Program-made: the position numbers and the translations under genes
Origin: Octopus vulgaris
Taxonomy: Eukaryota
Direction of reading: 5' to 3'
Length of the DNA: 64,000 nucleotides
Assembly (NCBI GenBank): GCA_951406725.2
Contig: OX597816.1
Location: forward strand, 107,632,001-107,696,000
Notes under the pieces: generated by a model
The model's input: the letters and a program-made list of their open reading frames with translations, nothing else
Told to the model about the DNA's origin: nothing
Databases searched by the model: none
In this document: positions 12,487 to 59,490 of the stretch, piece by piece
Layout: each line of letters opens with the position of its first letter
How positions within the stretch are numbered: the stretch's first letter is position 1

Positions 12487-12693
12487 AGTGAGAGTCTCCT
12501 TATTTACCTAAAACTCTATTTTTCTATTTATTCTTTTATTCTTTTATTTATTCTTTTAGGTACTTTACCACCGATTCCTTTGACCACTCCCCTAAGAATG
12601 ATAGTTTGCGCCATGCCTACCCCAAAAAGTCCCCCACCACCACCCCTTTAAACCTGCCTAAATGTATAAATGCCAAAACTACTCTTGTCACCT

Positions 12694-12744
12694 AGCTTCC
12701 TGATGATTTCTTTTGAATGAAACAGTTCTAGTCCTGTAGAAGCT
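12694..12744 (+). ncRNA. Type I hammerhead ribozyme motif, probably in a PLE terminus
   Basis: AGCTTC-CTGATGA-tTTC tttt GAAt-GAAA-CAG ttctagtc CTG-TA-GAAGCT: 6 bp stem I, intact core, 3 bp stem III, GUA cleavage triplet. Confidence 0.8.
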
Positions 12745-12826
12745 CCTTCTATAAAATAAATTAATTTACTCTGCTATGTATTGAGTACCTTATTTACTGT
12801 GGTTAACCTCGACTCAACCCGGGACC

Positions 12827-32965: not shown

Positions 32966-33000
32966 GTTTCTGACGAAGAGCTCCGCTCGAAACGTTAAAC
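32966..33000 (+). ncRNA. Minimal type I HHR-like motif in a solo PLE-like terminus (~32899-33093)
   Basis: GTTT-CTGACGA-A-GAGC tcc GCTC-GAAA-CG-TT-AAAC, with a palindromic ACGT stem III; flanked by (TG)n and (TA)n. Confidence 0.65.
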
Positions 33001-39134: not shown

Positions 39135-40049
39135 GAATGAATATATATATATATATATATACAGGTGAGAAAGTTGGTGTGTGAAAGCACGTGGTTGAAT
39201 ATATAGAAAATAGTAAAAAGTGAAAAAACTACAGAAGGCTTGTTTTAGAAGGTTAAAATATATATATTTGAGTCATTATGTCTGAAGAATGTTATAAATT
39301 TTTTTTCATACAATGACATAGTTTTTGAAGAAAGACCGGTTTCGCGTTCAGCTTTTAAAATTTCTTACATCGTTATGTTTACGTTGAGGAGTGTGGAGGA
39401 GAGTGAGAGAGAGTTCCAGATAAGGGTAGGTAATAAGTGATTTCTTCCGGTGTAAGGGAGATAATCGCTTAATATTTCTTGCCTTTCTTTTGGAGTGAGT
39501 TTCTCTGTATAAGAATGTTGGAATGGTTAAGTGTGGGCTTGTATTTTTCAATGAAGAATGTTTCCTTGTTTAGTCTAATTTGTGTTGGTGTTCCGATAGC
39601 ACATTGAGAAATGCGCAAAGCAACTACTACCACAATTTTTAATCTTTCCATTTTACCAATGTGCTATCGGAACACCAACACAAATTAGACTAAACAAGGA
39701 AACATTCTTCATTGAAAAATACAAGCCCAAACTTAACCATTCCAACATTCTTATACAGAGAAACTCACTCCAAAAGAAAGGCAAGAAATATTAAGCGATT
39801 ATCTCCCTTACACCGGAAGAAATCACTTATTACCTCCCCTTATCTGGAACTCTCTCTCACTCTCCTTCACACTTCTCAACGTAAACATAACGATGTAAGA
39901 AATTTGAAAAGCTGAACGCGAAACCGGTCTTTCTTCAAAAACTATGTCATTGTATGAAAAAAATTTATAACATTCTTCAGACATAATGACTCAAATATAT
40001 ATTTTTTAACCTTCTAAAACAAGCCTTCTGTAGTTTTTTCACTTTTTAC

Positions 40050-40099
<50 letters not shown>

Positions 40100-40327
40100 T
40101 ATGCGTGTGTGTGTGTGTTTGTGTGCCTGTGTTTGTCCCCCAGCATCGCTTGACAACGGATGCTGGTGTGTCTACGTCCCCGTAACATAGCGGTTCGGCA
40201 AAAGAGACCGATAGAATAAGTACTAGGCTTACAAAGAATAAGTCCTGGTGTCGATTTGGTCGACTAAAGACGGTGGTCCAGCATGGCCGCAGTCAAATGA
40301 CTGAAACAAGTAAAAGAGTAAAGAGAG
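38863..40327 (+). mobile_element. SINE family A split by the PLE palindrome
   Basis: Head at 38863-39021, then (TA)n, the PLE insert, more (TA)n, and the 3' half at ~40110-40327 ending (GTAAAAGA)n. Confidence 0.85.
39168..40055. mobile_element. PLE 3'-end fold-back palindrome with ~400 bp arms and a 50 nt loop
   Basis: 39207-39606 is a near-identical reverse complement of 39657-40055, giving mirror ORFs 39348-39551 (-) and 39712-39915 (+); homologous to 48286-48800 (TQIRLNKETFFIEKYKP). Confidence 0.93.
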
Positions 40328-40388
40328 TATACACACACACACACACAAACACACACATACACACACACATATATATATAAGACATAAG

Positions 40389-40431
<43 letters not shown>

Positions 40432-40460
40432 TATAATAATAATAATAATAATAATAATAT

Positions 40461-40508
40461 GCTACGCGCGTTTCCACTAATCACCTGATTTGGGGAAACG
40501 CGCGTAGC
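40461..40508. repeat. Short GC-rich hairpin with 15 bp perfect arms
   Basis: GCTACGCGCGTTTCC..GGAAACGCGCGTAGC next to (TAA)n. Confidence 0.9.
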
Positions 40509-40637
40509 GATGTATTAGATAGAATTATTGTTCTTATTTTATTTATCCAACATTATATCGGTATAACCATGATGCAACCCCGAAAAACTGACTCAGTAGT
40601 CAGTATCATTAGACGGAAGCCGGCTTAATGTAATAAG

Positions 40638-41028
40638 AGCTTTAATTGCATACCTTTAACGTTATCATAAACGAATTCAAAAGATATATATACGTATGTA
40701 TAAAATTATACAGAAAGCGAACTACTAAGTGGTCTCCTTACATGCTGAAAAGATATGTCAAATACCCAACCCAATCCCGTTTCTTCGTGGGTTGAGAATT
40801 TGACATCTCTTTTCAGCATGTAAGGAAACCACGTAGTGGTTCCCCTTTATGTGTATAATTTTATACACCAGTATGTATTTTAAAGATAATTATGGACAAC
40901 GGACATCTTTTGCGCATACTGGCCACTTGTATAAATTATTTTTAATAAGTTTTACCCTTTATATATACATATACATACTTATATATTGGTATGTATTATA
41001 TATCTTCTATATGTAGGAGATGAGGAAT

Positions 41029-41097
<69 letters not shown>

Positions 41098-41960
41098 GAA
41101 ATGAAGAAAATGCTGACAAGAAATTTTAGGCGCGAAACCAAGCAAATCTTAAACAACTCTGGAGTCTCTTTTTTCACATATAAGAGACAGCAAACCCAAC
41201 ATAAAGTCAGATAAGAGAAAAAAAATCTATCAGAAAGGAACTCTATCTCTCTTAAAAAATATCTTTTGATAAGCATAACAAATGCGCAACCGGTAAAAAG
41301 AACTTTCACCTAATTAAATACACTCTCCCTTACTTAAATTATTTTGTCAGCATTTTCTTCATTTCCTTTTTTTATATATCACAACTCGTGTTCCACATCT
41401 CCTTTTTTAAATATATATATATATATATATATAGATATATTGTTATATTTCGGAATGGTCATATTGCCAGTTTAACCATATATATATATATATATATTGT
41501 ATATAGATGTATAACACATTATTTGCATTATTTACAAATGACGGATATTTGTCCTCATCGTGGTTGTTGTTAACACAACGTTTCGGCTGATATACCCTCC
41601 ACCCTTCATCGGGTGTCTTGGGGATAATTTACATGCTGAAAAGAAAAGAGATGTCAAATCCCCAAACCACGAAGAAACGGGGTTGGTTTGGGTATTTGAC
41701 ATATCTTTTTAGCATGTAAGGAGACCATTTAATGGTTCTCTTTCTGTATAATTTTATACACGCGTATATATATATTTTAAGTTCGTTTATGGTAACGTTA
41801 AAGGTATGCAATTAAAGCTACCTTCGGAATGAGAACCCAGTTTCGAAATTTCCCCAAGACACCTGATGAAAGCTGTAGGGTATATCAGCCGAAACGTGTG
41901 TTAACAACAAACAAGTTGAGGACAAATATAAGTGAAATGTAAATAATGTAAATAATGTAT
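40638..41960. repeat. Cluster of overlapping inverted repeats
   Basis: 40638-40822 vs 41629-41819 (inverted); ~40697-40867 self-palindromic; 41095-41128 vs 41333-41368; ~41512-41627 vs ~41847-41960. Confidence 0.85.
41858..41902 (+). ncRNA. Minimal HHR-like motif, with an inverted mutated copy at 41572-41617
   Basis: GACAC-CTGATGA-A-aGCTG..CAGCC-GAAA-CG-T-GTGTT; the inverted copy has CCGATGA and CG-TT-GTGTT. Confidence 0.6.
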
Positions 41961-42051
41961 TATATATCTACATACAATTTATATATATACACATATAATA
42001 CATGTGTTTTATGTGTATATGTATGTATGAAATAAATGAATGCATCCTTTT

Positions 42052-42287
42052 AAAGCCTAGCCAGACTCATGGGTCTGTTTTCTCGGTTTCTATGGCGTAT
42101 GTGTTCCCCAGCTGGACGGGACGCCGGTCCATCGCAGCGTTACCCATTTTTGCCAGCTGAGTGGACTGGAGCAACGTGAAATGAAATGTTTTGCTCAAGA
42201 GCACAACGCGTCGCCCGGTCCAGGAATCGAAACCACAATCTTACGATTATGATGCCGACACCCAAACCACTAAGTCACGCGCCTTCA
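42052..42287 (-). mobile_element. tRNA-derived SINE with a Deu/Nin-like domain
   Basis: Reverse complement has GGCGCGTGACTTAGTGG (A-box), GGTTTCGATTCC (B-box) and GCGATGGACCGGCGTCCCGTCCAG. Confidence 0.8.
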
Positions 42288-42309
42288 CTATATGTATGTA
42301 TACACCCCC

Positions 42310-42358
<49 letters not shown>

Positions 42359-42526
42359 TTTAACTGCTGCTAACTATTAGCTACAGGCTAGTTTTCTCGG
42401 GTCTCATCGCGCCAGAAGTAGAGACATTTGAAATATATATTTCAAATGTAATAGGACGTACTCCATGCACGCGATATTTCGGTATCGTGTTGGCATTTAG
42501 TATAGCAAATTGCATTTTATATGGGA

Positions 42527-42592
42527 CCATGCTGATGATGGTTGCACTTTTCCTTGCGGAAAATAACAACCGAAACTAAATTTAGTACATGG
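42527..42592 (+). ncRNA. Type I hammerhead ribozyme motif
   Basis: CCATG-CTGATGA-t-GGTTG..TTTTCC ttgc GGAAAA..CAACC-GAAA-CTAAATTTAG-TA-CATGG; all three stems can form. Confidence 0.8.
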
Positions 42593-43169
42593 GTAAATAT
42601 TTATTTCGTATATTTTTCACTTGTTTATTGCTTTGGTTTTGTGTTGAGTTTGATCTGAGAACATAGACTTTTTTTGTGGAGAATGGCGATTTGACGTCTA
42701 TATCTAGCATGTTGACTGTCCACTTTTCGTGTTCAGCCCTTAATTGGTATATATATATATATTCTTTTATTCTTTTATATGTATATTATTCTTTCGAAGT
42801 TTCGGCCAGTTAAGCCATCATACGACCGTTATCTGACTGAAAATTCGAAGTCATTCTCAATACTAACACTGGGTAAAAGGTAAAAGAAATTGCATTTTAC
42901 AAAAGATAGGGAATAATCCTTCGATCATGCCGAAATATAATAATATCTGTTTCATCACACGATTTCATATCAGGAATTTTGCAAAACAAATACATGTGTC
43001 TATTATAACTCTCCATAAAAACCAATATGCATACATATAAATGTGTGTGTGCGTGTGTATCCCCGTCCCTCCCAACTCCCCACTCACATACTCCTCATCC
43101 CCTGCCTTCCAGCCTTCAACCACCCCAAAACCCCACCACCCCTCCTACTTCTGTCCCATCAACCCCTTC

Positions 43170-43579
43170 TCCACTTCAGTCTGTTGTTACCATTCCTCCA
43201 GATCTTCTTCTCTTTGAGGCGGTGCGCTCCCTCCTCAGTAAGAATCCGCGCTTCAACCCCCTCACTCCACCCAGCATCGAATTTCGGACTCGTGCTGATA
43301 TCCACAGCTTTGTGCGCCGCGTTAGGTTGTGTGCGCTTTTCCGCGACACTCCACTTGCATCTAATGAGGAGGATTGCTTCACCGACCTGGGCCGCCGACC
43401 ACCTCAGTGGCGCCAGCTCCTGGCCAGTTCCAAGCAGTCGATCTTTTTGCGGACGCCGGCCAGCGCGCTGGGGACCGGTTTGACCTTTCCAAGCGTCCCC
43501 GGCATCTGAATATCTCCCCTGCCGAACTCTCAGCCCTTGGATGTCTCCGACACCGCACGGATATCATCATAAAACCGGG

Positions 43580-43580
<1 letters not shown>
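43170..43580 (+). mobile_element. PLE N-terminal ORF fragment (pre-RT region)
   Basis: SLLSKNPRFNP..DIHSFVRRVRL..F, then by frameshift LNISPAELSALGCLRHRTDIIIKP, truncated at (CA)n just before the expected ADKG. Confidence 0.75.
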
Positions 43581-43619
<39 letters not shown>

Positions 43620-43790
43620 ACACAGACACAGACACATACACACACACACACATATCAAGAATTGAACAGAGAGAACACAAGGAGAAAACACAGCAAGCGG
43701 AAGACGAAAACCAACGATAACCACAACATACGGTAATACGTATGTGTGAATGTGTGTACATGCATTTATATATTTATGCGTACGCACACA

Positions 43791-43827
<37 letters not shown>

Positions 43828-45053
43828 ACACACACATACACACACACACATACACACACACATACACACACACGCGCATGCACACACGCACACACCCACA
43901 CACACACACACACACGCAATCTGTCAAAATACCTTAGAGTAAAGTATTGCTGAAGACTGATTAAATCCTTACATGTTAATCAAATCATACTCTTAAGCTG
44001 AAGAAGTCGTAGAAGTACCTTCACTCTCTTTAAATGGCTAAAATCCTAAGAGAACTAACACATTCGGCTATATTCTCTGGTTGAGAAACAGATAGCAACA
44101 TATGAATGTTGCGATATACTATCGTATTACTAATTTTTAATTTTCATTTTCAATCTGTTTATTTTAGAATATCATTCGAGTAACGCTTTTTTGAGTCTTT
44201 TAAAAACGCCATTACTAAAGAGAAAACCGCAGTTTCAAACTACTTGCGGGCCCTACTTTTATCTTTATATGTTTGCGTGCCATCTCCACTTCATTAGGTA
44301 GCCAACTCTTTGTGAGAAATTTTGCCTGCAATGACGGGCTACGTTTTTACAATTATTATCTTAATTTTCTTCACCATTTAAAATCTCCGATGCTCCAATT
44401 ACAGATAATTGGTTTCAAATTTTGTCACTAGGTCAATAATTTCTTGGGAGTGGTTAAGTAGATCACACGGACTAAAATGCTTAACTAGTACTTATTATAT
44501 CGGCCCCGAAAGGATGAAAGCAAAATCGACCTCGGCGGAATTTGATCTCAGAACGTAATGAGGGAGTTAAATGTTGCTCACTATTCTGTCAGTTCATCGC
44601 CCTGATCCAAGTACAAAATATTATTCCAAAATACGTGAATCTAAATTCCTATCAAAATTCATTAAAGTAAATCGGAACGTCCAATAAATGATAACATTTG
44701 GGGTTGCTATATAATTTAACCTTCCACTTTTGTCGACATATTTTTGTATCATTTGTGCACTTTCTCAAATCCCTTACAACAAAATGAATCCAATGAATCC
44801 AATGATGGCAAACCAGCGAACCATAGCTTAGACTGTTCTGCTGTCGCAGAAATGGATTTTTATATCATGTTCGTTTTCTTCTCTGGTGAAAGAGGGACTG
44901 TTTTTTCTAATTACATGAAAAGTCAAATAATTTCCATTTACGCACAGACACCCGAATACATTCAGAAAAAGGTTTAACTTTTAATACCATTAATCAGTAG
45001 CATCTTAGAGCCTCCACCGGTAAAATCAATGTACTGGGCACTATAGTACTTAC

Positions 45054-45147
45054 CTATTAGCAACAAGCCATGGCATACATAGATTAGCATTGGACCTTTT
45101 GACTTGTGGAACCTCAGAAAATTGTTCATGGTGTCCATGCATTAAAA
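45054..45147 (-). CDS. Candidate internal exon (94 nt) of an unidentified gene
   Basis: Acceptor TACATTGCAG| and donor AG|GTAAGT; only one frame is open (LMHGHHEQFSEVPQVKRSNANLCMPWLVAN); non-repetitive context; no homology recognised. Confidence 0.3.
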
Positions 45148-45907
45148 CTGCAATGTAGTTAAATACATAAATGTCACATCCAAATCTGACGTCAAGCGTC
45201 GCCAATTTCTCTAAGTTTCACATTAACTAAATATGCTGTATATTCTACTAAATAATTACGAATGAATTATACATAAATTATAGTTTACAATTCATATTTA
45301 CTTGACTTTCTTGATAATAGATGAGATGATATATATTCAGATAACTAAAAGCAACAAGCAAATTTCTGCATGATTAGGATCTAGATACATATAAAACAGA
45401 TGAACCATCAACTAATGAAAGTGCTTGTGAGATTTAGAATTATTAATGTAACAGCAAGAATAAGAGACGTGAGAAAATAATTATCTAGGTACGTTAAGAA
45501 GCGCTAAAAATGGAAACTGGAAGGAATGAGAAAGAGCTAGTACCGACACAAATTCGAATATAGTCAATATTTATATTTACACATCCTTACTTCTTTAGTA
45601 AAACTGATATGCTTTAGAAATAATTAAGCAAGTGCGTGTGTGGTTATGTGTATATCTCTGACACACATATACATACAAATAGACATTTAAAAAGAGGCTA
45701 CAGTAAAGTGAACGGAGTCAATCTTCTTAATAGGAAAAAATATTAGTGGATTGTTCCCGCCAAGACATCAATAAAATACCTGCATAATAGACCAGACGTT
45801 GTTCTGGGACAGAGAAAAGAAATGCACAGATTCACATATATAATGACATACATGACTGTTTTCATAGATATTAGTGCACACATGTATATGCAAGCTTACT
45901 TACGTGC

Positions 45908-45938
<31 letters not shown>

Positions 45939-45952
45939 CATACATACATACA

Positions 45953-45986
<34 letters not shown>

Positions 45987-46554
45987 CATACATAAAATAA
46001 AACATACAAATCTGCATATATACATTCATAAGTATATACAAAAATACCCTGTTGTTGATGTTTAAATTCCAATGAAAGAGCCTTGGATCTAGGATAGGAA
46101 CCAGCTCTTTTTCTATTGGCAAAAATTCTTGAAATAAAACTGCACAATGACATAGATACAACATACACATACACATACAAATGGAAAGATGCGGTAACCA
46201 GAGAGTTTCGTTTAAGCGTTAACCAGTCACTTTTAATTAATCATTTCTAATGTCAGCAAATGAACTAAAGTCGACAGCCAATAATAAATTTTGTGTGAAT
46301 GTAAACTATTAAAACAGTTTATGTAATTGACAAGCCAATTACAGCAAACATGATTTATAATTAATTAAGTTAATAGAGTCCAGTGGTAGTAATAATAATA
46401 TAACAACGACAATTGAATAGATAATTCAGTTTAGTTTTTAATATACTTTAAACAAAAATGAACTAAAAGAATGGATATGAACAATAGAGAAAAACAGATA
46501 TATCAAATACTACGCAATATAAATTTTTGGTTTATTAAAATCATATCAAATCAT

Positions 46555-46871
46555 AGGTAGCGGGACACCGAAAGGGGTCTCACGGAGTAGTGTCCCTGCC
46601 TTCCTGGGCTAGTTTTCTACCAAATTTCTTAGAAATCGTGGTAGAGGCCTTGGTCTCGGAACCACTCATCTCTAGAAACTGAAGTGGAGGTAAGCAAAGG
46701 CATACTTCCCGTAGAAAATCCAGCTCCAAATAAGCCTCATGATAGCAAAGGAGAATGGGCACCAACAAGCCCAAAAGTTGGGGTGGGCTGCACCTGCCTC
46801 CCTCGGTTATTATGGCATTGAGATAGATCCGGCCACCACCGTTAACGGTAACAAAACCCAGATTTAAAACA

Positions 46872-46943
<72 letters not shown>

Positions 46944-46945
46944 AT
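46555..46945 (+). mobile_element. Unclassified SINE-like retroposon with a (GAT)n tail
   Basis: GC-richer ~320 bp unit ending directly in a long (GAT)n; no ORF recognised. Confidence 0.5.
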
Positions 46946-47103
46946 CCGCCGTTAGGGGATGTGTAACAATTATCGCATTATTTGATATATATGTATTTAC
47001 CTATGTTATTCATACATACGCTACTGGTCATCTCCCTTCGACCAATTTTGTCTAAAATGTGCAAATATACATACACACATAGATGTATGTATTATGTATG
47101 TAT

Positions 47104-47200
<97 letters not shown>

Positions 47201-48798
47201 AAATAGTGAAGAGTGAAAAAACTACAGAAGGCTTAAATGTTAAAAAATATATATATTTGCGTCAATATGTCTGAAGAATATTAGAAAATTAAAAAAATTA
47301 TTTTTTTCTCTTATAATGACATAATCAATCTTTGGAAACCCCCTCTCTCAATACATAAAAGAGAATTGGAAACGATTCTTAGACGATTGTTTTATTCTCT
47401 GGAATGAAAACACAGATAAACTCCTAAAATTTAAAAACCTATTGAACAGCATAAACCCAAATATACAGTTCACAATGGAATACAACCAAAAGGAGCTCCC
47501 GTTCTTGGATATACTAATTAAAAAAATTAACCTTAAAATAGAAACAGACATTTTTTACAAAGCCACAGACGCCAAACAATACCTTCTTTTTAATTTATGC
47601 CACCCAAGACACACTAAATCAAACACCCCCTTCAACCTTGCAAGAAGGATATGCACAATAGTGTCAGAACAAAATACCAGGAACTTTAGACTGCAAGAAC
47701 TCAAAAACACCCTAATTGACAGACATTACCCAGCTCAACTCATAGAGGATGGGATCAGACGTGCAACAGAAATCAACATAGAAACTTTAAGAAAAGTTCA
47801 ACACAACAACACACCTTCCCCGAAAATACTACCTTACATATCTACATACAACCCCAGAAACAAAGAAGCCTTCACCATCATCACCCAGAATTTACCAATA
47901 CTTCATAAAGACCCCAAACTAAAGGAAATTCTAAACATACACCAAATCATTAAAAGCTACGAACAGCCTAAATCACTTAAAAAGATTCTCACAAAGGCAA
48001 AATTGTCTTCTGAAATTACGGATGCAATAGTAAAAAAATGTGGTAGATAGAACTGTGCAACATGTCCTAACCTGCTAGAAGGATCAGAATTCCTCTTTAA
48101 AGAGGGACAGAAATTCAAGATCAAATTTAACTTTACTTGTGCCTCTGAAAACATAATTTATGTCATAAAATGCTCGGGCTGCCACCAAGACTACGTGGGT
48201 TCCACGGGACTATCACTCAGACGTAGATGCACACTGCATCGACAACAGATTGCATTCCCAGAATATAGAATGATACCTTTTAGTGAGCACATTGAGACAT
48301 GCGCAAAGCAACTACTACCACAATTTTTAATCTTTCCATTTTACCAATGTGCTTTCGGATCATCAACACAAATTAGACTAAACAAGGAAACATTCTTCAT
48401 TGAAAAGTACAAGCCCAGACTCAACCATCCGAACATACTGATACAGAGAAATTCACACCAAGGGAAAGGAAAAGATTTTTAAGCGATTATCTCCCTTACA
48501 CCGGAAGAAATCACTCACTACCTTCCCTTATTTAGAACTCTCCTGAACATAAACATAACGATAACTCTATTCAACATAAACATAACGTCGCAAGAAATTT
48601 GAAAAGCTACACGCGAAACCGGTCTTTCTTTTAAATTATGTCATAATAAGAGAAAAAAATTTTTTTTAAAGTTTTCTAATATTCTTCAGACATATTGACG
48701 CAAATATATATATTTTTTAACATTTAAGCCTTCTGTAGTTTTTTCACTCTTTACTATTTTCTATATATTCACCCACGTGCTTTCACAAACCAACTTTC

Positions 48799-48800
<2 letters not shown>
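47201..48800 (+). mobile_element. Penelope-like element (RT C-terminal half, Zn-finger linker, GIY-YIG), 5'-truncated, with an inverted partial pLTR
   Basis: WKRFLDDCFILW, INPNIQFTME..LPFLDI, CHPRHTK, CGR*NCATC, FTCASENIIYVIKCSGC..YVGSTG..RRRCTLH; 47201-47325 is the reverse complement of 48635-48759; both flanks are microsatellites. Confidence 0.93.
48592..48630 (+). ncRNA. Variant minimal HHR (U3-A8 type) in the PLE terminus; copies at 39897-39935 (+) and 39328-39366 (-)
   Basis: AAGAAA-t-TTGAAAA-GC tacac GC-GAAA-CCGG-TC-TTTCTT. Confidence 0.55.
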
Positions 48801-48881
<81 letters not shown>

Positions 48882-49109
48882 CATATCTGTGTGTATGTTT
48901 GTTCGCGCGTGCGTTTTGATAATAGGTAAAACTATTTGGTTTAATAGACGTTAAGGTGAATGAAATTTGAAGTTTTCAGTCAACTTTTACATGTTTAACA
49001 CACAAACACACCTACACACATACACACACACATACTAGTAAGTTTCTCAGAATCCTGTCTTTTCATTTTCTGTTGCCAAAGTAAGACGGCCTTGTACATT
49101 TTAATATTG

Positions 49110-49648
49110 GTTTATAATTTTGGCGTAAGGTCAGAAATTTTGGAGGAGGGGTAAATCGATTACGTCAACTCTAATGTTCATCTGGTAATTACTTTATCGG
49201 TCCAGACAGGGTGAAAAGCAATGTCGACCTCGGCGGAATTTGAACTCAGACCGTAAACGGACGAAATGCCGCTGAGCTTTTCGCCCGGCGTGCTACCAAT
49301 TATGCCAGCTGGTCGCCTTGCTATATTTTAATATTAGTGTATTTAATATTATTCTTGTAACTGTTTTGTTTCTGTGGTTGAATAAATATGTGTTTGTGCT
49401 TTGCCAGGAATTAGTTATTTCTTTACTACCTACAAGGGGCTAAACACAGAGGGGACAAACAAGGACAGATAAACGGATTAAGTCGATTATATCGACCCCA
49501 GTGCGTAACTGGTACTTAATTTATCGACCCCGAAAGGATGAAAGGCAAAGTCGACCTCGGCGGCATTTGAACCCAGAACGTAACGGCAGACGAAATACGG
49601 CTACGCATTTCGCCCGGCGTGCTACCAGTTGTGCTCGCTGACCGCCTT
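49110..49648 (-). mobile_element. Two family B SINEs (49110-49320 and 49415-49648) with different tails
   Basis: Both carry GTCGACCTCGGCGG..TTTGAAC..TTTCGCCCGGCGTGCTACCA. Confidence 0.85.
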
Positions 49649-49699
49649 TGTGTATTTTAATCTTAGTGTATTTAATATTATTCTTGTAACTGTTTAGTT

Positions 49700-52240
49700 T
49701 CTGTTGTTGAATAGATATGTGCTTGTGCTTTGCCTGGAATTAGTGTTAATTTCCGTGTACTTGATAATATTGTGTCTTCCGATATTAGAGATACTAGAAG
49801 AGTCAATGTTATCAGCTAGGTTAATTGCTGTTGGGGATGAGAATGTGACTGTAACTTTACTAAATATGCTATGGAATTTGTGTTTCAGTAGAAAATGTTT
49901 TATTAGTATATCAAAGACGATATCACGTGCTTCTTCTTATGTTCTTAACGCAAGGATCACTAACTTATGTTTCTTCTTCTAGTTGTCTTAGAGTTAGTTT
50001 TTATCTCTTCTTATTTCTTGTGTAGTATTGTTGCAAACCTTAGATTTAGTTCTGTCACAATTATAAGTACTAGTACTAAAAGAATTTTCAGAAGATATTT
50101 CTGTATTCTTAACCTTACAATTATTGTTACTTTTGTCTTTTCATTGTTACGGACGTGGAACGTGAAATATATTAAATTTTCCTGTTATCCGATATTGTGA
50201 TAGCATTACCGTGGTTGATTAGTTTATGCTTCGCTTTTATACTAATGTCGGCTTTTAAGTCTATTAATAGTAACTATAGAAATTGTTTATGCTTTGTATT
50301 TGTCTCTTAGAACATTTATTTCTGTATCAACCGCTCTCCCTTAATTAGTACTTGGGAATTCCGTTATCTTATTATCTTCATATCTATTATCACAATGTTA
50401 TAATCGTTTAGGATCCTTAATTGTTGTAGGTATTAGACAAAAAAGTGTTTAATTTTTCAAATAATTATTAGCAAGAAAATATATTTGTGTATTACTTTTT
50501 GGTTTGGGGAAATGTTTATGCTAATGGTACTGTTTAATTGTTTATAGAGAGAAATTTATGCTATTCTTTTCATTAAAGTCACATCGTTTCAGTTCTTTGT
50601 TATAATATTCTAAATTATATTGGGTTGGCAAAAAAGTAATTTCATTTTTCGCAAATAGATAGAGTTACGAGTTTTTGAATGACTTTTGTCAATGTTATGA
50701 TTTTTTTCCTTTTGACATTTGATAGCCGTTATCTTTAGCTTACTTTAGAAGCTTGCTCGTAATTTTGCTAACGTCTGTTAATTCAGTGTCATTTTGAACA
50801 TGGAGTACGAAAACGAAAATTTTCGCCATGTTTTGCTTTTTATATTTCCGTAAAGACAAGAAAGCTGCTGAGGCTCACAAAGAAATATGTGAAGCGTTGA
50901 TTGCTTAACAGAACCCACCTGTCAGAAATGGTTTGAAGAATTTCGTCCTGGAGATTTTTCCCTCAAAGATGATCAACATTCTGGTCGACCCACCGAAGTT
51001 GATGATGATCGAATCAAAGTCATATTTGAATCTGATTGTCATATAACTGTGCGAGAGATTGCAGAGAGGCTAAATGTATGACGCACAACAATTGAAAATC
51101 ACTTAAAATGTCTTGGACTCAGTAAGAAGCTCAATATCTGGGTTCCACATAAATTGAAAGAGATATACTTAACAGAACGAATCAATATTTGCGATATGCA
51201 TCTCAAACGCAATGAAATCAACCTTTTCTTGAAACGTATAAGCACTTGTGATGAAAAATGGATTGTCTACAATAACATCAATCGAAAACGATCATGGTCC
51301 ATGCGTAATGAACCAGCACAAACCACACCGAAAGCTGAATTGCATCAAAGAAAGGTCATGCTGTTAGTTTGGTGGGATTACAAAGGTGTTGTGTATTTTG
51401 AGCTGCTTTCAAGGAACCAAACGATCAATTCAGATGTTTACTGTAAACAAGTAATGAAGCAATCAGAGAAAAACGGCTAGAATTGGCAAATCATAAAGGA
51501 ATTGTGTTCCACCATGACCACGCTAAACCTCACACGTCTCTGCTAATTCGTGAAAACGTATTGGAAATTGGTTGGGAAGTAATGTCACATCCACCATATA
51601 GCCCTGGCTTTCCATCATCAGATTATCATTTGTTTCGAAGTTTGCAAAATTCTTTGAATGGTAAAACTTTCAATAATGATGATGACCTGTAATCGCACTT
51701 GCTTCAATTTTTGGCTGATAAAGACCAGAAGTCCTATGAGCGCGGAGAGCTCATTGAAAATATGGAAAATATATAATTGATTAAAGTTCATTCATTGTAT
51801 GAAAAAAATGACTTTTATTTCACATTAAAAAACCGAAATTACTTCCTTGCCTACCCAATAATTGAATATCTGGTCATTTCCTGAAAATTTTAATATTCTA
51901 ATTGAAATATGTCTAACAAGATTATGTATAATAGACCTGAGACGATAGAATGCATACAGTGCAATATTTTATTCGCATTGTGGTATGAAAAGTGCTTGCG
52001 AGGGTAACATCAAATAACTTAAATTTTGGCGTTGGTATCAACAGACATAAAAGATTAAAATCTATAAAACAAAACCTTAGTAGGGCCTTTCGAAGTCTTT
52101 CTAAATCTGAAAGGTTACATCTATTTATAATAGTTAAAGCATCATCCCTGTACAAATCGCCACTGATTTTTGGGAGTTAATCCTTCAGTTGATGTGACGA
52201 AAACAGTCCGACCAACTTAGAAGCGTAAATCGAGTCCGAG
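49700..52240 (-). mobile_element. Old PLE RT fragment interrupted by a mariner
   Basis: LVGLF and YRDDALTII..LERLRK..FDVTL (ORF 51922-52155) lie on one side of the mariner; LIKHFLLKHKFHSIFSKVTVTFS (~49840-49910) lies on the other. Confidence 0.65.
50620..51858 (+). mobile_element. Full-length mariner (D,D34D type) with a pseudogenised transposase
   Basis: TIRs TTGGGTTGGCAAAAAAGTAATTTC and GAAATTACTTCCTTGCCTACCCAA, with TA on both sides; WVPHKL, TCDEKW, HHDHAKPH and HPPYSP..SDYHLF. Confidence 0.95.
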
Positions 52241-53929
52241 AAATTATACACACATATGCACACACATGCCCGCGCATACTCACACACATCTGGTTTTCAT
52301 GTCAGGGTATAGCACAGTATAACAAGAGATACGAACTCAGAACATGCAGCTATGTGCATATTATGAATTATCAATTCCTCTCCTCTTTGGATGCTGTCAT
52401 GTCTTACACATGCCTGCATGGCTACACATGGTCACAACAACGTTCATGAATTTTACAGTGGTCAAATAAAATGTAAATTAACGTCAGTGGAATTTTTGTT
52501 CAGACGACTTAATGATGCACAACATTGCTTCAGAGTGTTTATTAAGTGATGAAAACAATATATAAAAACAACCGTCTTGAAACAAAATTAACTACAAAAA
52601 ATAAAATAAAATTCGAACAAATGTTGCTGAGATAAAGAGGATGCTGTTATAAAAAACATACTCTGCTTAATAATACAAAACAAACACAAAAATATACATA
52701 GAGGAAACCACAGAATTGAAAAGTCGTCAAATTATTCACTAAAAACTAAGATAAACAAGCACATATTCACTGAATGAAGTGTAGCCACGATTCGATAAAC
52801 GGTATATTTAGTAATGTTTTAAGCTTCGAAGAATTCTACCAAGATACGGAACTGACCATTTCTGACATTCGCTTAAATTGATTGAATTAAATTTGATTTG
52901 CAACAATAGGATGATTTTATTTTTAGCGATTCTAGATTTTAAGCAAAACATTTGTTAATTAGATTGCTGGTAAAAAGTTTACGATCTTCAACTGCCAACC
53001 ATTAAAACATGGAAATATTTGTCTCTCATTTCTCGAAATTGCCAATACTGGTGAGGTTTTTAGGTGTGTAGCAGGCATAAAATGGTCTCAGGTACAGAAA
53101 ATAGGGGCTTATGCGAGTTATTCCTTGTGTGAGATATATATAAAAAAAAAATAGTCAAGAGAACCACAGGCAATTTGTGCAGTGTAAAAACAAAACAATT
53201 CATGGATCTTTATTTCACAGTGCGATTAAATAAAAGTTTATTTTAAACAAACCTATGATAACTTACAATCTGTGATACCTCCGACAATTCTAGCGTCACA
53301 TATTTGTTTCATTTATGAAAATATACATAAATTCAGTTGATACTGATAAGCATAAATGAGGATAAGGGGAAGATTTCTGGAGTATGTCCGAACGTCTAAA
53401 CGGATTTCCCGTCGTTTTCGTCGAATGACTAATACAGTTGGTCCACCAACGGAATATTTTCGAAGTCCATCAACAGAGTATCTTTCCGTTCTAGTATATG
53501 GTTAGTAAATAAGCATTCCACAGATGTGAACAATAACGAAATATCTAAACAAAACCAGTATGAGATCAGAGTGTATGATGATAATGACACTGTTGACCCA
53601 AACTGTCAGAGTAATTCTGGATAAACATAAAAATGTATAGTAGTCGTTCAGATTTCCCGTGTTGCTCAATGATAACTAGGTACAAACTCGTTAGGAAGCA
53701 TTGTAGCAGTGATCAGATTTTATTGATATGGCAACCAGTATTCAGACTATTTCAACTAATCCTTTTATTTATATAGTAATAATCAAAACAAATTTAGATG
53801 CTCATCTATATTTAGAAGAAGCATGACCAAAGAGCTATGTAGGATAACAATGTTAACAGTTCAGTTATGTTGGTTGACGATGTAAAATTTAAACTCATTT
53901 CGTAACCACAAAATCTTAAATTTTCTCAT

Positions 53930-54098
53930 CCACCGCTTGATAACCAGCGTTGAACACAGTTTCTTTCGGTTTCCTTTCACAAGGCTTTAGTCGGTCCGGG
54001 GCTATAGCAAAATACACTAGTCCAGAGTGCCACGCAGCGTGACGAACCAAAAACCACATAGTTAGGAAGCAAACCTCTTAACCATACAGCCACGCCTG
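53930..54098 (-). mobile_element. Decayed SINE family A
   Basis: Ends CTTAACCATACAGCCACGCC, the reverse complement of the family A head. Confidence 0.65.
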
Positions 54099-54325
54099 AT
54101 GCAGGGTACTGCTACAAATGAAAATTTATCATTGAATATTTCTGTATTTATACGTTCTGTTTCTGTTAGCTATCAACAATATATTTTTCCTTGGAATATT
54201 TGATTAAATAAGTAGAATATTGCCTAAATATTTCTTAAATGTCAAGTATAAACCTAGGTTGTTAACTTTAAGATATGTACATGCACAAAAAATACAGTTC
54301 ATGCATGTACAGTATTGCAGCTAAA

Positions 54326-55189
54326 TCTAATCTATAAAATAAAGAAGGCGAACGTTGATACATATAGAATTTTTTAGGTAAAAAGGGGTCTAAATGGGGC
54401 TGGAAGGGGATTAAAATTTACAGGAGGGGGTAACTTGAGGTGAGAAATTGATTGGGAGACGTTTTGGGGCGCTACAGTGGTTGCTTTGGTGTGAAAACAG
54501 AGATTTTATTGATTTTGGGGGACACTTGGAGGTCTACATTGGACACCTTTTGCCCGATTTCAATCAAATTTTCAACATGGTAAAGTGTAAGCGGATTTGT
54601 AATCTAATCTATAAAATGAAGAAGGCGAACGTTAATGCAAATTGGATTTTTATGTAAAAAGGGGTCTAAATGGGGCTGGAAGGGGATTAAAATTTACGAG
54701 AGGGTGTAACTTGAGGTGAGAAATTGATTGGAAGACGTTTTGGGGCGCTACAGTGGTTGCTTTGGTGAGTCTACTATCCTCAGATTCTATCCCTTCAAAC
54801 TTTGGTTTCCAATATTTTTCAATTTTTATTCAGCTCGATGTTCGTCTGTCCCTTTTAAATGTTAATGTTTTGCTGTCCGCCTTGAAGCAGACCTTTCCGT
54901 TGTCACTGCCTGATATTTGTGACTGATCTTTCAAAATATTACCTTTCTCTTTACTTACTCAAGATCTTTTGTTTTTTTTATAAATGGGAGAGAGACAAAT
55001 AGAGAAAGATAGAGAGTAAAAGAAAGCGAGGGAGAGTCCGAGGTAAAGGAAGAGTAAGAGAGTGAGAAAGTGAGAGAGAAAGGAGAGAGAAACAAAGGGG
55101 GAGAATGTGGCGATAACAAACAGGAAGGAAGCAACAGAAAGTAACAACCACACCATCACCCGCGTGTAGAGCGGGTCACCTTAAGCTAG
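54326..55189 (+). mobile_element. Non-autonomous Helitron with a duplicated 5' end
   Basis: A|TCTAATCTATAAAAT starts at 54326 and again at 54603; 3' hairpin ACCCGC-gtgtaga-GCGGGT is followed by CTAG|T. Confidence 0.85.
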
Positions 55190-55456
55190 TATACAATATA
55201 TAATGAACTGAGAAAATAAACTTCATGTTGTGTAAGATTAAGAAATTTAGAATTTAAACATTAAATATGATCAGCAATAAATTGGTGTATATATATATAT
55301 ATACACGCGCACACACACACACACACGCCCACACACAAACACACACACACACACACATATAGCTTGCTTACAAAGAATAAGTCCTGGGGGCAATTTACTC
55401 AACTAAAGGCGTTGCTCCAGCATGGCCGTAGTCAAATGACTGAAACAAGTAAAAGA

Positions 55457-55509
<53 letters not shown>

Positions 55510-56082
55510 ACACGCACATAAACAGGTGCATATCTAAATATACATACATAAACGTGTGCGTGCGTACACATACATATACATATTCATATTTATAAATCCA
55601 TTATAATGTATCTAATGTGTGACAAGATTAAGAAGAGAGAGTAGGATAGAGAAGGAGAGAAATCAATGATAGTGAATGAGACTGAATATATATTTTAGTA
55701 GAAAAAAAGAATGAAAATTTCTATAAAGCAACCTTGCAAATCACCTCATGAGAATTACTACTCTTCGTCTTATTTTCAGTAAAATGCTTCAAGAATCATT
55801 GCTACCTCCTACTATCGGTTGCTAACACTATATTGAAAAGACACGCCATAAAAGGCAAGCGTAAGATCGTTACTAACAGGATTATAATGTGGAAACTTCG
55901 TCAGCAGATTTTCTTTCTTTGTCTTCAGAAAGGATAAAAGAAAATTTAGCAACTAACGTCAAAATAAAGGAGTAAACGGAAATTCTAAATAGTAGCCAAC
56001 CAAGTTATTAAATACTGATGTTAGAGAAATGAAAGCAAATAAAGAATGTGTGTATATATATGTATATATGTATGCATGTATG

Positions 56083-56137
<55 letters not shown>

Positions 56138-56182
56138 ATGTGTGTATGTACATATATATATATATGTATATGTATGTATATG

Positions 56183-56280
<98 letters not shown>

Positions 56281-56281
<1 letters not shown>

Positions 56282-57594
56282 GAGGGAGAGTCTAAAAATT
56301 ATAAGCACAAATACTTTTTGGATGTATCTACACAAAAGTAGGAGATAAACAACTTTGTAATTTTTCTATATAGTATCCTTCTTTACCGATGCACTTGGTC
56401 CAGCAGTCCACTAGCTTGCGTATTCCCTCCAAGAAGAAGGTTTTCTGTTGGTCGTGCAACCATTTATGCACAGCTTCCTTCACATCTTCATCTGTAGAAA
56501 ATCAACGACCTCGTAAACTATCTTTGAGCAGTCTAAATATATGATAGTCGGAAGGAGCGAGATCTGGGCTGTAGGCAGGATGCTGCAGCACCTCAAAACA
56601 CAATTGGTTAATGGTTTCGACGGTCTGTGTGGCCGTGTGTGGGCGTGCATTGTCATGCAATAACAAAACTTTCTTCAACAATAGGCTTCGGTGTTTGGTG
56701 CGAATTGCTGGCTTCAGTTTATTGACCAGCAAAGCACTGTATATTGCACTGTTGATCGTATACCCCTTTTCCAGGTAGTCTTCCAACATAGGCTCTTTTG
56801 AGACTCCTCCAAAAGGGTTAACATCAGCTTGCACGCGAAAGACAGTCTTGAATTTCTTCGTCGCTGGTGAGCCAGGATGTTTCCACTCCATACTCTGAAT
56901 TTTGGATTCTGCCTCATAATTATGGGCCCACATTTCATCTCCTGTAAACATTCTGCTCACAAATTCCTCACCCTCATAGTTGTAGCGATCGAGCAAACGT
57001 ATGAAAACATCAAGACTTTTGCGCTTGTGCTCTGCAGTAAGCTCTATTGGCACCTATCTTTCCACAGACTGTATGGAAGCTGAGCTCATCGTGGATAATT
57101 TGATAGGTGGAACCATGAATAATTCGCAGAGAACGAACTATCTCATCAATGATAACTCGCCGGTTCACCATTACTATCTCTTGAGCCTACTGAATTTTCC
57201 CGTCAGTGGTGGAGGTTGACGAGCATCCTGCTCCCTCTTCGTGCGTTACGCTTATCCGGCCACTTTTAAACTTCTCGATCCACGTATACACACCTGTACA
57301 CGGTTGTATACTGTCCTCGTACTGTGCTAAAAGTCTCCGATGAATTTCAGCAACTGATACACCTTCAGACTAGAGAATTTGGATCACTGCTCTTTGTTCT
57401 TCCTTGGTGTACATTGCTAGAGGAGCGGCCATGCTTACACTTTAAAGTCAGAAAGAAAAATGGCGTGATCCGGCTCAAACTTCGATCGCCTGACCACAAT
57501 AGTACGAACTATAAGCACGCATGCGCAGAATGCAGTGTGACAATTATAAAAATATGTTATGGCGCAAGTGGGGATAATTTTTAACTTCCCCTCG
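56281..57594 (-). mobile_element. Mariner element inserted in (TA)n
   Basis: ORF 56502-57053 (TGDEMWAH..EWKHPGSP..LHDNARPH..HPAYSPDLAPSDYHIF); TIRs TA|CGAGGGAGAGTCTAAAAATTAT and ATAATTTTTAACTTCCCCTCG|TA. Confidence 0.93.
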
Positions 57595-57600
57595 TATATA

Positions 57601-57889
57601 TAGACAACAGTGTGCAATGTTTTACCGAAAAGGAAAACTATAATTGCCACTAAATATGACCAGGGTGTTAGAAACACCTACATTGCTAGAAATAAGAGCT
57701 TAGATGCTCTAATGCTGTAGTTAAAGCACATAATTGTATACATATGTACTGACAGGGACCGTAATTGTCCGAAAGCACTGGTCGAGAATTCCCTATATTG
57801 ATCGGTCAGTTTCGGCTAATTCCGTAGCCTCATCACTAGGGGCCGCTCGACTCGGCTTCTTTCGGACAGGGGCGATTGCGGTCCCTGTC

Positions 57890-57935
<46 letters not shown>

Positions 57936-58068
57936 TATGTGCTTTAACTACAGCATTAAAACTCTTTAGCTGTTATTTCTAGCAATGTAGGTGTTCTCAC
58001 ACCCTAGTCATATTTAGTGACAATTATAGTTTTCCTTTTTGGTAAAACATTGCACACTGTTGTACATA
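57601..58068. repeat. Fold-back element with ~170 bp arms whose loop contains a hammerhead
   Basis: ACAACAGTGTGCAATGTTTTACC..TGACAGGGACCG pairs with CGGTCCCTGTCA..GGTAAAACATTGCACACTGTTGT. Confidence 0.9.
57791..57841 (-). ncRNA. Type I HHR motif, with C3 mutated to G
   Basis: CCCTA-gTGATGA-GGCTA cggaat TAGCC-GAAA-CTGA ccga TCAa-TA-TAGGG. Confidence 0.7.
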
Positions 58069-58180
58069 TTGAATTATTGTATACAGATTAGTGATTCGCT
58101 AAATCATCCATATAATTTTAGGGTGAATACATATGTCCTCACACAGAAGTAAGTCCGCAAAAAGCCAAATCGAGCGGTGG

Positions 58181-58233
58181 TCCCTACTCATGAGTCTACG
58201 GAATTAGCCGAAACTGACCGATCTGTATAGGGA
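58181..58233 (+). ncRNA. Second copy of the same HHR, with G5 mutated to C
   Basis: TCCCTA-CTcATGA-GtCTA cggaat TAGCC-GAAA-CTGA ccga TCtG-TA-TAGGGA. Confidence 0.7.
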
Positions 58234-58994
58234 ATTTTCGACCGGTGCTTTCGGGTGATTACGGTCGTTGTCAGTGCCTATATGCTTCAACTATAGCATT
58301 ATATATATATGATAAAAGAGGGGGTGGTGTTTCCACGTAGGAAAAATATATAGGAATATGTAGTTGAAAATGCACCTAAATTTTAAAAACTCGTAAATGT
58401 TTAAAATACATTTATTTACATATATACCAAACTAGTTTCAACAATATTTTTTTGTTTATCAATGGTAAAAATTTCAAATTAGGAAAACAACTTTAAAAGT
58501 TTCAATGTTAACAAATTAAAATGTTTCAATGTTGATAAACTAACATGTTCAAAACAGAAGCTGTAAGTTTGAGTGTTCATAGCAGTCAATAAGATTAAAA
58601 CTGTATATCAATTTGTTTGAATGTACAAAGTTCATTAATTTTAGTGGTGGCCGACGAGTCATACTGAAAAAAAAAACAAGTGTGAAATGAAAGTAGTAAA
58701 AAAAAAAAGGAATTTGGTTTACAGTTTCTCTGATCCTCTTCTAATAGACGCTTTCACTTGTAGTGTTATGTTTTGGGATCAGATAAATTTATAAGTTTTT
58801 TCGGCGAGCGGATCTAAGTTTTGATTCGTTAAGATACTGGTGATGTTTTTTTTCCGTGGTCAAGCATGTTGTTCTGCTTGGTTGGTTTCCTTATGGATAC
58901 GGTCATAAGTCGTTCCGGTTGGTTGGTTCTCTTAAAGGGTCATTTCGTTGTATTTGCTGAAGTTCGGTTTTGATTGGTCTGGAGTTGGATTTTA

Positions 58995-59490
58995 GGCTCA
59001 CACCAAATTATCAAGAGCAAAATGCAACCAGAATCATTGAAGAAAATATTAATCAACGCAAGACTTTATCCATTAACAACGGATCCAAAAGTGAGAAAAT
59101 GTGGTTGGCCTAACTGCGGCACATACCCCCACATTTTAGAGGGTACAGAACTCCACTTTAAACAAAGTGAAATATTTAAGATTAAATCAAGTTTTACCTG
59201 TGCGTCGGAAAACCTACTCTATGCCATTACCTGTTTAGGGTGCGGTGATCAATATATTGACCTAACAGGAATATCACTCCATCGAAGAACCACGCTTCAC
59301 AAAGAAGAAATCCGCCACCTACAATACAGATATATACCGGTCAGTGAACACATAGAAAGGTGTGCTAGGAAACTTAATACTAATTTCCTAATTTTCTTCT
59401 TCTATAATGTTCACAGAACACCGCAGTACAGCAAAGAATGAATAAAGAAGCAACTTTCCTCAATATCTTGCACAACTCAATATGAATACA
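58995..59490 (+). mobile_element. PLE Zn-finger plus GIY-YIG fragment, a relative of the 47-48 kb element
   Basis: ORF 58974-59441: HQIIKS..SLKKIL..KCGWPNCGT..FTCASENLLYAITCLGC..PVSEHIERCA. Confidence 0.88.

Follow-up and report, generated by a model that had tools for sequence, protein, structure and literature searches.

The question raised by this locus is whether several short motifs in a 64-kb window (the whole stretch of DNA analysed here) are hammerhead ribozymes that conventional searches overlook, and whether these copies could still cleave. A sequence-only reading had described them as functional U3-A8 variants of the minimal hammerhead with a palindromic 4-nt stem III, occurring at three apparently different termini. 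All four motifs on which it was based, with U3 at 39904 (+), 41266 (+), 48599 (+) and 58462 (-), were confirmed letter for letter when the window sequence was read, together with their coordinates and register irregularities. We consider it probable that they are minimal type I hammerheads whose core carries the compensated pair U3-A8 and which lie at the 3' termini of decayed Penelope-like copies, that the intact form would cleave itself weakly as a dimer, and that the copies in the window are crippled relics.

Motifs and the elements that carry them

The motifs were assigned as follows.

48592..48630, + strand: minimal type I hammerhead with a U3-A8 core, main family
39897..39935, + strand: second copy of the main-family motif
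39328..39366, - strand: third copy of the main-family motif, with G5U, within the palindrome 39199-40062, on its inverted arm
41262..41301, + strand: decayed U3-A8 hammerhead of a family other than that of 39897/48592
58425..58467, - strand: U3-A8 hammerhead of a third family

In the 48592 motif, a 6-bp stem I (48592-97/48625-30) was followed by an unpaired U (48598), the core nucleotides U3 to A9 (48599-48605), a stem II of 2 bp (G-C/C-G in both main-family copies), GAAA (48615-18) and the palindrome CCGG (48619-22); cleavage is predicted after C17 (48624). The motif at 39897-39935 differed from it only at two of the five loop II bases. In both copies, the base after C17 (39929 in the 39897 copy) was missing, and the single U between stem I and U3 was left unpaired. 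The two copies were 82% alike over 490 nt and represented one family; therefore, the window contained three independent motifs, in agreement with the three termini initially proposed.

The other two families were irregular in different ways. The 41262 motif had A13C, a 4-bp stem II, a CCGG palindrome and a 4-bp stem I that paired only once two A's were skipped. The 58467 motif had a strict 5-bp stem I, U17, a CUAG palindrome and a 4-bp stem II that was not closed by G-C and carried an extra U before GAAA (one base out of register); a tail of 120 nt and (TA)n lay downstream of it. The core boxes (the 3-8 pair, U4 G5 A6 A9 and G12 A13 A14 A15.1) were intact at 39904, 48599 and 58462 and broken by A13C at 41266 and by G5U in the inverted-arm copy (39366-39328). 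U16.1-H17 at the cut site was UC, UC, UA and UU in the four sites. Stem I adjoined positions 3 and 17 directly at 58467, was off by one base in 39897/48592 and by two in 41262. Positions 15.2-16.2 formed the palindromes CCGG and CUAG, which would permit dimers.

The following parts of Penelope-like elements were found around the motifs.

47325..48482, + strand: 5'-truncated Penelope-like ORF with the end of the reverse transcriptase (RT), a CX4CxxC linker and a GIY-YIG endonuclease
47200..47325, - strand: short inverted copy (95%) of the 3' tail 48635-48760, adjoining a (TA)n/(GA)n run
39199..40062, both orientations: palindromic insertion in which two 3' fragments of the main family stand head to head
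58989..59473, + strand: decayed related Penelope-like ORF fragment, 57% identical in amino acids to the 47325 ORF

The ORF at 47325..48482 was interrupted by a single in-frame stop (codon 242), and its match to GIY-YIG (E 0.0026) was below the cut-off of Pfam. It had 64 longer relatives (best identity 59%), most with RT and/or GIY-YIG domains, and the full-length ones combined RVT_1 with GIY-YIG. C239, C244, C247 and C283, C286, H305, H322 were invariant in 28 aligned proteins, and the CX2-5CxxC linker and CCHH motif of the Neptune/Nematis type, as defined in PMC8557442, were present. The same paper describes for these elements a C-terminal GIY-YIG domain, (TA)n neighbours, inverted 5'-truncated arms and a hammerhead near the 3' end, all shared with the window element; the related elements differ in that they keep C3-G8.

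The arrangement at 47200..47325 is typical of Penelope-like insertions according to PMC8557442. In the 48k element, the inverted arm begins approximately 10 nt beyond the predicted cut site rather than at it and hence shows no sign of a cleaved template. The fragments in 39199..40062 comprised ORF codons 316-385, the 3' UTR, the motif and the tail, and their arms differed at 9 of 411 positions. All window copies were 5'-truncated; one relative (L002) bore an identical motif at both ends.

The proposed location in element termini was demonstrated by linkage to an ORF for the 39897/48592 family only. The 41262 motif belongs to a short element flanked by (TA)n, whose 45-nt inverted arms lie at 41084-41128/41335-41379, and a pyrimidine tail with (TA)n follows approximately 85 nt further on. 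No significant protein match was found beside it by blastx or with a profile of 74 C-termini; the peptide LESLFSHIRDSKPNIK, found there in a six-frame translation and reminiscent of a GIY-YIG C-terminus, was rejected because neither method matched it. A search for an ORF belonging to the 58467 motif found none. The fragment 58989..59473 lies approximately 530 nt away on the opposite strand; no inverted homology linked the motif to it, and no recognisable hammerhead followed it.

Compensation of the core pair in related elements

Among the relatives of the 47325 ORF, all 11 that reached the ORF end had a type I hammerhead in the corresponding position, 83-255 nt past the end of the match (approximately 174 nt in the window copy). 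Ten of them combined C3-G8 with a 4-nt palindromic stem III (CCGG in five, and GATC, CATG, GCGC, ACGT and TATA). Because related elements have C3-G8 at this position, U3-A8 represents a compensatory change.

Stems I and III covaried among these C3-G8 counterparts. In eight copies from outside the window, 90% of cells were paired, with two-sided changes in 10 of 13 pairs; none of 500 shuffles scored as high for covariation, and slid controls were 29-48% paired. When four window copies were added, pair 3-8 was CG in eight and UA in four of the 12 copies and was never unpaired, and stem III was 100% paired with two-sided changes. In the tree, the window ORFs were nested in a clade (100/100) that includes C3-G8 elements. 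The U3-A8/CCGG pattern was absent from the 86 loci searched, and viral contigs contained neither this pattern nor a protein relative. The presence of U3-A8 in three families within 64 kb, compared with C3-G8 in all but one of the 11 relatives, which came from other samples, hints at a shift in the host lineage.

Variation within the main family was drawn from contigs of four runs that overlie 48400-48700. No U3>C or A8>G change reached at least 4% in any run, so U3-A8 is the family-wide state. Between the two window copies, none of 34 non-loop positions of the motif differed, versus 40 of 217 in the flanking UTR (p 0.0017). The contig-based test of conservation would weaken to p 0.063 should both hidden rows lie in the motif; short contigs conceal clustered changes, and the window's own loop II variant was absent from the variants listed. 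Thus, the expected stem covariation was found across related elements, whereas within the main family only conservation was seen.

The missing base and the activity of the copies

Some main-family members carried an extra A directly after the cleavage site, which places stem I in a strict 7-bp register; the window copies 39897 and 48592 are without it. In part of the family, the U before U3 is unpaired as its partner just 3' of the cut is missing. Strict-register, A-bearing members were present in all four runs, each of which contained loose contig ends starting ATTTCTT directly after 48624 (8, 6, 4 and 1 contigs); in one run, six contigs had A at position 17 and then ATTTCTT. These loose ends carried the 39897-type tail, although the 39897 copy itself is A-less. 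The A-less form is common to two copies whose flanks differ by 18% and, judging from ungapped records, probably occurs in multi-copy contigs as well; simple one-off decay does not account for its presence in diverged copies.

The cleavage mechanism would be as follows. By analogy with published work, the ACCGGU palindrome would be too short for one copy to close stem III. Two copies in a tandem transcript (from the 5' and 3' pseudo-LTRs) would instead use it to pair with each other, each completing the core of its partner, and cleavage would follow position 17, perhaps assisted by the element's protein. A dimer fold with stems I and II and an intermolecular stem III was calculated at -11.1 kcal/mol versus +4.4 for the monomer hammerhead fold; this dimer was not the lowest, since alternatives at -12.1 and -16.7 kcal/mol were obtained. 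Every window copy deviated from the hammerhead consensus, and activity would be reduced or abolished by A13C, by G5U and by the lack of the base directly 3' of the cut. In view of A13C and G5U, the 41262 and inverted-arm (39366-39328) copies are likely dead. Therefore, of the claim that the motifs are functional variants, the part concerning variant hammerheads was supported, and the part concerning the function of these copies was not.

It is possible, though we favour it clearly less, that the A-less form is a selected working variant in which one U is bulged before U3 and cleavage is slow and perhaps protein-dependent. Both window subfamilies are A-less with an otherwise unchanged motif despite 18% divergence of their flanks, and ungapped multi-copy contigs 13-19% from the window copy appear to continue in X8 and X9 for 7-11 nt beyond the site. 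Natural variants with insertions at 2a/2b retain cleavage at high Mg2+ (PMC3088659), and one relative (L003) likewise has an unpaired U before U3. However, a two-base insertion at that place strongly impairs cleavage (PMC3088659), strict-register members occur in all runs, and, among the 18 hammerhead rows from outside loci, 16 kept strict register, in a census that detects only intact-core motifs and is hence biased.

An unlikely explanation is that the motif descends from a hammerhead but is now kept for a different job, such as RNA dimerisation, binding of the element's protein or a promoter or start region. Its sequence was conserved even in copies out of strict register. In the anole element, mutating the hammerhead left in vitro insertion unaffected, and none of the RNA reads had its end at the cut site; this is the sole Penelope element tested biochemically, and its insertion did not need hammerhead cleavage (PMC11167929). 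The anole ribozyme depended on protein. PMC8557442 calls hammerhead function in endonuclease-bearing elements unclear. In contrast, selection on catalysis predicts both the double change that preserves the 3-8 pair and the presence at position 17 of C or A, each of which is allowed there.

Detection of the motifs and their place among known hammerheads

Rfam did not detect the motifs: its hammerhead families gave nothing around 48592 or 58467 up to E 10, and no hammerhead was among the 150 of 366 whole-window matches listed. A loose descriptor allowing U3-A8, fitted after the sites were known, accepted all four motifs and gave four matches in the window, compared with an average of 0.148 per shuffle in one set of 250 block shuffles and 0.10 in a second set of 250, with no shuffle in either giving more than one. 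Ten other cores served as controls: eight gave no matches, one recovered the G5U arm, and TTCA.AA gave a single loose match.

For 41262 and 58467, chance resemblance in AT-rich DNA was also considered and appears improbable. No linked ORF was found for either, and the descriptor, which was fitted afterwards, gave one match at its loosest setting in 37 of 250 shuffles of one set and 25 of 250 of the other. When scored with a model derived only from C3-G8 copies outside the window, 41262 reached only E 1.6. However, 58467 was the window's second-best match to this model (20.4 bits, E 0.004, a rough value), and at its stringency matches occurred in 0 of 250 and 1 of 250 shuffles; this motif is probably real, on the strength of these scores. 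In favour of 41262, it lies before a pyrimidine tail with (TA)n and within inverted arms, as the proven main-family copies do. Against the preferred reading, the same model gave those main-family copies scores no better than background (9.0 bits, E 6, and 8.4 bits, E 8.9).

The motifs are variant hammerheads of an already published kind. The novelty implied by the sequence-only reading was not upheld, and U3-A8 Penelope hammerheads as a new kind are ruled out: U3-A8, palindromic stem III and dimer cleavage have been published (PMC4209133, PMC3088659), with approximately 1,300 U3-A8 matches in Schistosoma mansoni in a 2014 descriptor search of exactly the type that the sequence-only reading proposed (PMC4209133). 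The Cercyon elements of S. mansoni (Cervera and de la Pena 2014, PMC4209133) share the minimal type I hammerhead in a pseudo-LTR and U3-A8, and row S. mansoni (4) of Fig. S3 has the same UUGAAAA core. The Cercyon motifs differ in stem II (4-6 bp in the two U3-A8 rows versus 2-4 bp), in one additional nucleotide that separates positions 9 and 10.1 and in a 2-nt rather than 4-nt palindrome. Conversely, Aedes aegypti, Drosophila willistoni and Saccoglossus hammerheads there have the 4-nt helix III palindrome and predicted dimer activity, like the window motifs, and C3-G8, unlike them. No row in the consulted part of the supplement combined U3-A8 with a 4-nt palindrome; this combination may already have been reported by Lunse et al. 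for dimer-cleaving Penelope hammerheads, as cited in PMC6765202. Perreault et al. 2011 (PMC3088659) described natural U3-A8 covariation and insertions between stem I and position 3, the latter in saltern genomes and metagenomes; unlike these insertions, the unpaired U in the window stems from the missing base after the cut site. No description of the window motifs was found in the literature on octopus or cephalopod hammerheads.

The least likely explanation, for which we would give only a small chance, is that many copies have each lost this one base at the scissile bond in separate events, leaving a genomic scar, formed where the cleaved RNA end is rejoined by ligation or jumped by reverse transcriptase: the difference falls exactly at that bond, the 39897 and diverged 48592 copies are both A-less while A-bearing ends carry the 39897-type tail, the unpaired 5'-side bases of the two out-of-register outside rows (L003, L018) are as expected from loss at the cut site, and 41262 has two extra A's on that side, but a single old deletion or subfamily recombination is simpler, L018 also fits a strict-register reading with G17, and the strict register of most outside rows, within the bias of that census, speaks against it. 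Searches with narrow phrases found no report of base loss at a hammerhead cut site.

These findings confirm that CUGANGA searches and Rfam overlook whole hammerhead families in animal genomes, of which this window is a further example, and the natural swap between C3-G8 and U3-A8 inside one element clade is useful for refining search models. If the missing base is recurrent, it bears on whether Penelope hammerheads cut in vivo (PMC11167929, PMC8557442). Should the scar explanation be true, these hammerheads would cut in vivo during retrotransposition, and the thousands of copies per genome would make cleavage events countable.

Hammerhead motifs and their elements

The DNA of the window was AT-rich, of animal type and crowded with microsatellites and short repeats, and its repeats appear cephalopod in character. 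Re-reading of the sequence bore out the presence of four motifs in which the tertiary core pair C3-G8 was replaced by U3-A8, and a fifth copy lay in an inverted arm.

Hammerhead motifs in the window
39897-39935 and 48592-48630, plus strand: type I hammerhead, main family; 6-bp stem I, one unpaired U, core UUGAAAA, 2-bp stem II, GAAA, CCGG, UC
41262-41301, plus strand: type I hammerhead; stem I pairing only past two extra A's, core UUGAUAA, 4-bp stem II, GCAA replacing GAAA, CCGG, UA
58467-58425, minus strand: type I hammerhead; strict 5-bp stem I, UUGAUAA, 4-bp stem II, one extra U, GAAA, CUAG, UU
39366-39328, minus strand: fifth copy, in an inverted arm; G5U

A loose descriptor covering all four motifs, defined only once the sites were known, matched four times in the window (means of 0.148 and 0.10 when it was block-shuffled 250 times in each of two sets), and with exact GAAA it matched three times (means of 0.016 and 0.012 in two such sets). 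Judged from their sequence, the motifs are real hammerhead homologues, as the sequence-only reading had proposed; its further inference that they are functional is not supported for the window copies, which are damaged.

The motif at 48592 was located 117 nt past the stop codon of the ORF at 47325-48482 and was followed by a tail, an inverted copy of which adjoined the element's 5' end. Interrupted by one in-frame stop, this ORF encoded the last part of an RT, a CX4CxxC linker and a GIY-YIG endonuclease. It had 64 longer relatives (identity up to 59%), and of three that were scanned, all matched RVT_1 and two matched GIY-YIG; the named protein relatives came from oyster and clam-symbiont assemblies. 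The linker and CCHH residues were unchanged across 28 aligned proteins and are likewise present in the Neptune/Nematis-type Penelope-like elements, so the ORF fits this type as defined in the accessible part of PMC8557442. The palindrome at 39199-40062 consisted of two 3' fragments of the main family, with 82% likeness to the 48k copy. A search for an ORF belonging to the 41262 or the 58467 motif found none. The former was inside a short element that had inverted arms of 45 nt and was bordered by (TA)n. After the latter came a 120-nt tail and then (TA)n, and a related ORF fragment lay on the opposite strand about 530 nt away.

A covariance model was built from eight C3-G8 hammerheads of related elements outside the window. 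Its best match in the window was a canonical C3-G8 type I hammerhead at 12692-12746 on the plus strand (E 0.0005), and its second-best was 58470-58422 (20.4 bits, E roughly 0.004). The E value was 1.6 for the 41262 motif and 6 and 8.9, that is, background, for the main-family copies. Because the model alignment of the 58467 motif contained a gap at G8, this motif may possibly also be read as a decayed C3-G8 hammerhead; if one A is missing from its A-run, its core would be U3-A8 and its stem II 5 bp long.

The hammerhead at 12692-12746, in a short (TA)n-flanked element, had 6 bp in stem I and 4 bp in stem III, and a monomer fold is possible for it. A canonical minimal hammerhead at 32970-32996 on the plus strand (CUGACGA, an extra base ahead of stem II, 2-nt palindrome CG, 4-bp stem I) was found in a short element flanked by microsatellites. 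An inverted repeat (41478-41630/41846-41996, 86%), belonging to a larger, nested inverted structure at 40638-41996, carried a decayed C3-G8 hammerhead-like motif in each arm. Inverted and direct repeats at 57598-58281 contained three decayed hammerhead-like motifs with core CUGACA and stem II GACC/GGUC, the best being the minus-strand copy at 58274. At 50560-51860 (plus) and 56285-57575 (minus) were two DNA transposons of mariner type, both decayed (matches to Transposase_1 and DDE_3; boundaries judged by eye).

Relatives, conservation and ancestry of the main family

Among the best 80 of 93 metagenome loci and six genome loci, 11 close relatives reached the ORF end, and all 11 carried a hammerhead 83-255 nt beyond the match end (about 174 nt in the window copy); near-copy pairs (L002/L008 and L004/L006) make the independent relatives fewer than 11. 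C3-G8 with a 4-nt palindrome in stem III was present in 10 of them (CCGG five times, GATC, CATG, GCGC, ACGT and TATA). In the remaining locus, L003 (1923-1967, plus strand), U3 faced G8, an unpaired U preceded U3, and stem III contained an 8-nt palindrome. The hammerhead of the close relative L077 (1860-1895, plus strand) had a GCGC palindrome and no stem II, three bases separating its core boxes, and in locus L082 stem I was just 2 bp. Animal-type Penelope-like elements within bacterial genome bins, labelled as bacterial GIY-YIG proteins (loci L081-L086, proteins P0015, P0023 and P0026), are likely host contamination.

Covariation was examined in eight outside copies, seven close relatives picked for a clear motif and the distant locus L032. 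Paired cells amounted to 90% (29-48% in slid controls), two-sided changes occurred in 10 of 13 pairs, and the covariation score was reached by none of 500 shuffles, in a test biased in favour of the structure, which was drawn from the tested sequences themselves. With four window copies added, pair 3-8 was CG in eight and UA in four. In a tree of 29 protein rows, both window ORFs fell within a 100/100 clade containing C3-G8 elements. Therefore, U3-A8 is likely a derived state; the nearest proteins (P0002-P0006) were compared as protein alone.

The element was present, whole or in part, in 20 of 24 listed sequencing runs. Contigs of four runs with three organism labels (993, 838, 283 and 139 records) were aligned to 48400-48700 at 80% likeness and a 4% share. 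None of the 40 listed differences fell within 48592-48644. The tally of change types gave two further differences, one G>T and one T>G, and thus neither U3>C nor A8>G occurred at this share. For conservation of the motif relative to its flanks, the p value was between 0.002 and 0.063, according to the position of the two unplaced differences; contig variation was underestimated, since short contigs are clipped where changes cluster. Between the 39897 and 48592 copies, 0 of 34 non-loop motif positions differed (two of five in loop II), whereas the flanking UTR had 40 differences in 217 positions (p 0.0017) and the ORF had 20 in 193 (p 0.033).

Register at the cut site

Loose contig ends starting with ATTTCTT directly past C17 (48624), the predicted cut site, were found in the four runs (8, 6, 4 and 1 contigs). 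In one run, six more contigs had A at position 17 and then ATTTCTT. The first A of ATTTCTT, an extra base relative to the window copies, is the pairing partner of the U left unpaired there, so stem I of these members comprises 7 bp in strict register, that is, adjoining positions 3 and 17. They probably carry U3-A8, since neither C3 nor G8 was listed at the 4% share. The longest loose ends with the extra A had a tail of the 39897 type. The extra-A insertion was absent among the listed gapped contig alignments at a 4% share, and four ungapped multi-copy records extended 7-11 nt beyond the site; this suggests that the A-less form is also common. Strict register was seen in 16 of 18 hammerhead rows of outside loci, and the two exceptions, L003 and L018, had 5'-side bases that were unpaired. 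The one lead from the analysis is the lack of the A precisely at the cut site in the main-family window copies.

Known hammerheads and predicted cleavage

A 2014 paper already recorded U3-A8 in hammerheads of Penelope elements, with about 1,300 hits, among them the UUGAAAA core of the window's main family, and palindromic helix III variants appear in the same source (PMC4209133). None of the supplement rows compared combined U3-A8 with a 4-nt palindrome, a combination that may be reported by Lunse et al. (as cited in PMC6765202). The window motifs were not described in the accessible portions of PMC7229834, PMC6962438, bioRxiv 10.64898/2026.07.22.740005 or the supplement of PMC8557442. By sequence, they belong to an already known kind of hammerhead.

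According to PMC4209133, type I hammerheads whose helix III is a tiny palindrome fold as active dimers in tandem repeats, and a minimal S. mansoni motif showed no activity as a monomer and weak activity as a dimer or trimer. Other sources report activity of U3-A8 ribozymes and strongly impaired cleavage with a two-base insertion ahead of position 3 (PMC3088659), and an anole Penelope hammerhead that cleaves only with protein and is dispensable for insertion in vitro (PMC11167929). Folding predictions gave -11.1 kcal/mol for a dimer of the window motif through ACCGGU, versus +4.4 kcal/mol with the monomer folded as a hammerhead; alternative dimers were lower still (-12.1 and -16.7 kcal/mol). 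Homology, position, conservation and the strict-register form are established for the main family. From this literature and these energies, we infer that the intact family form would cleave weakly as a dimer, possibly helped by protein, and that the window copies would cleave little or not at all.
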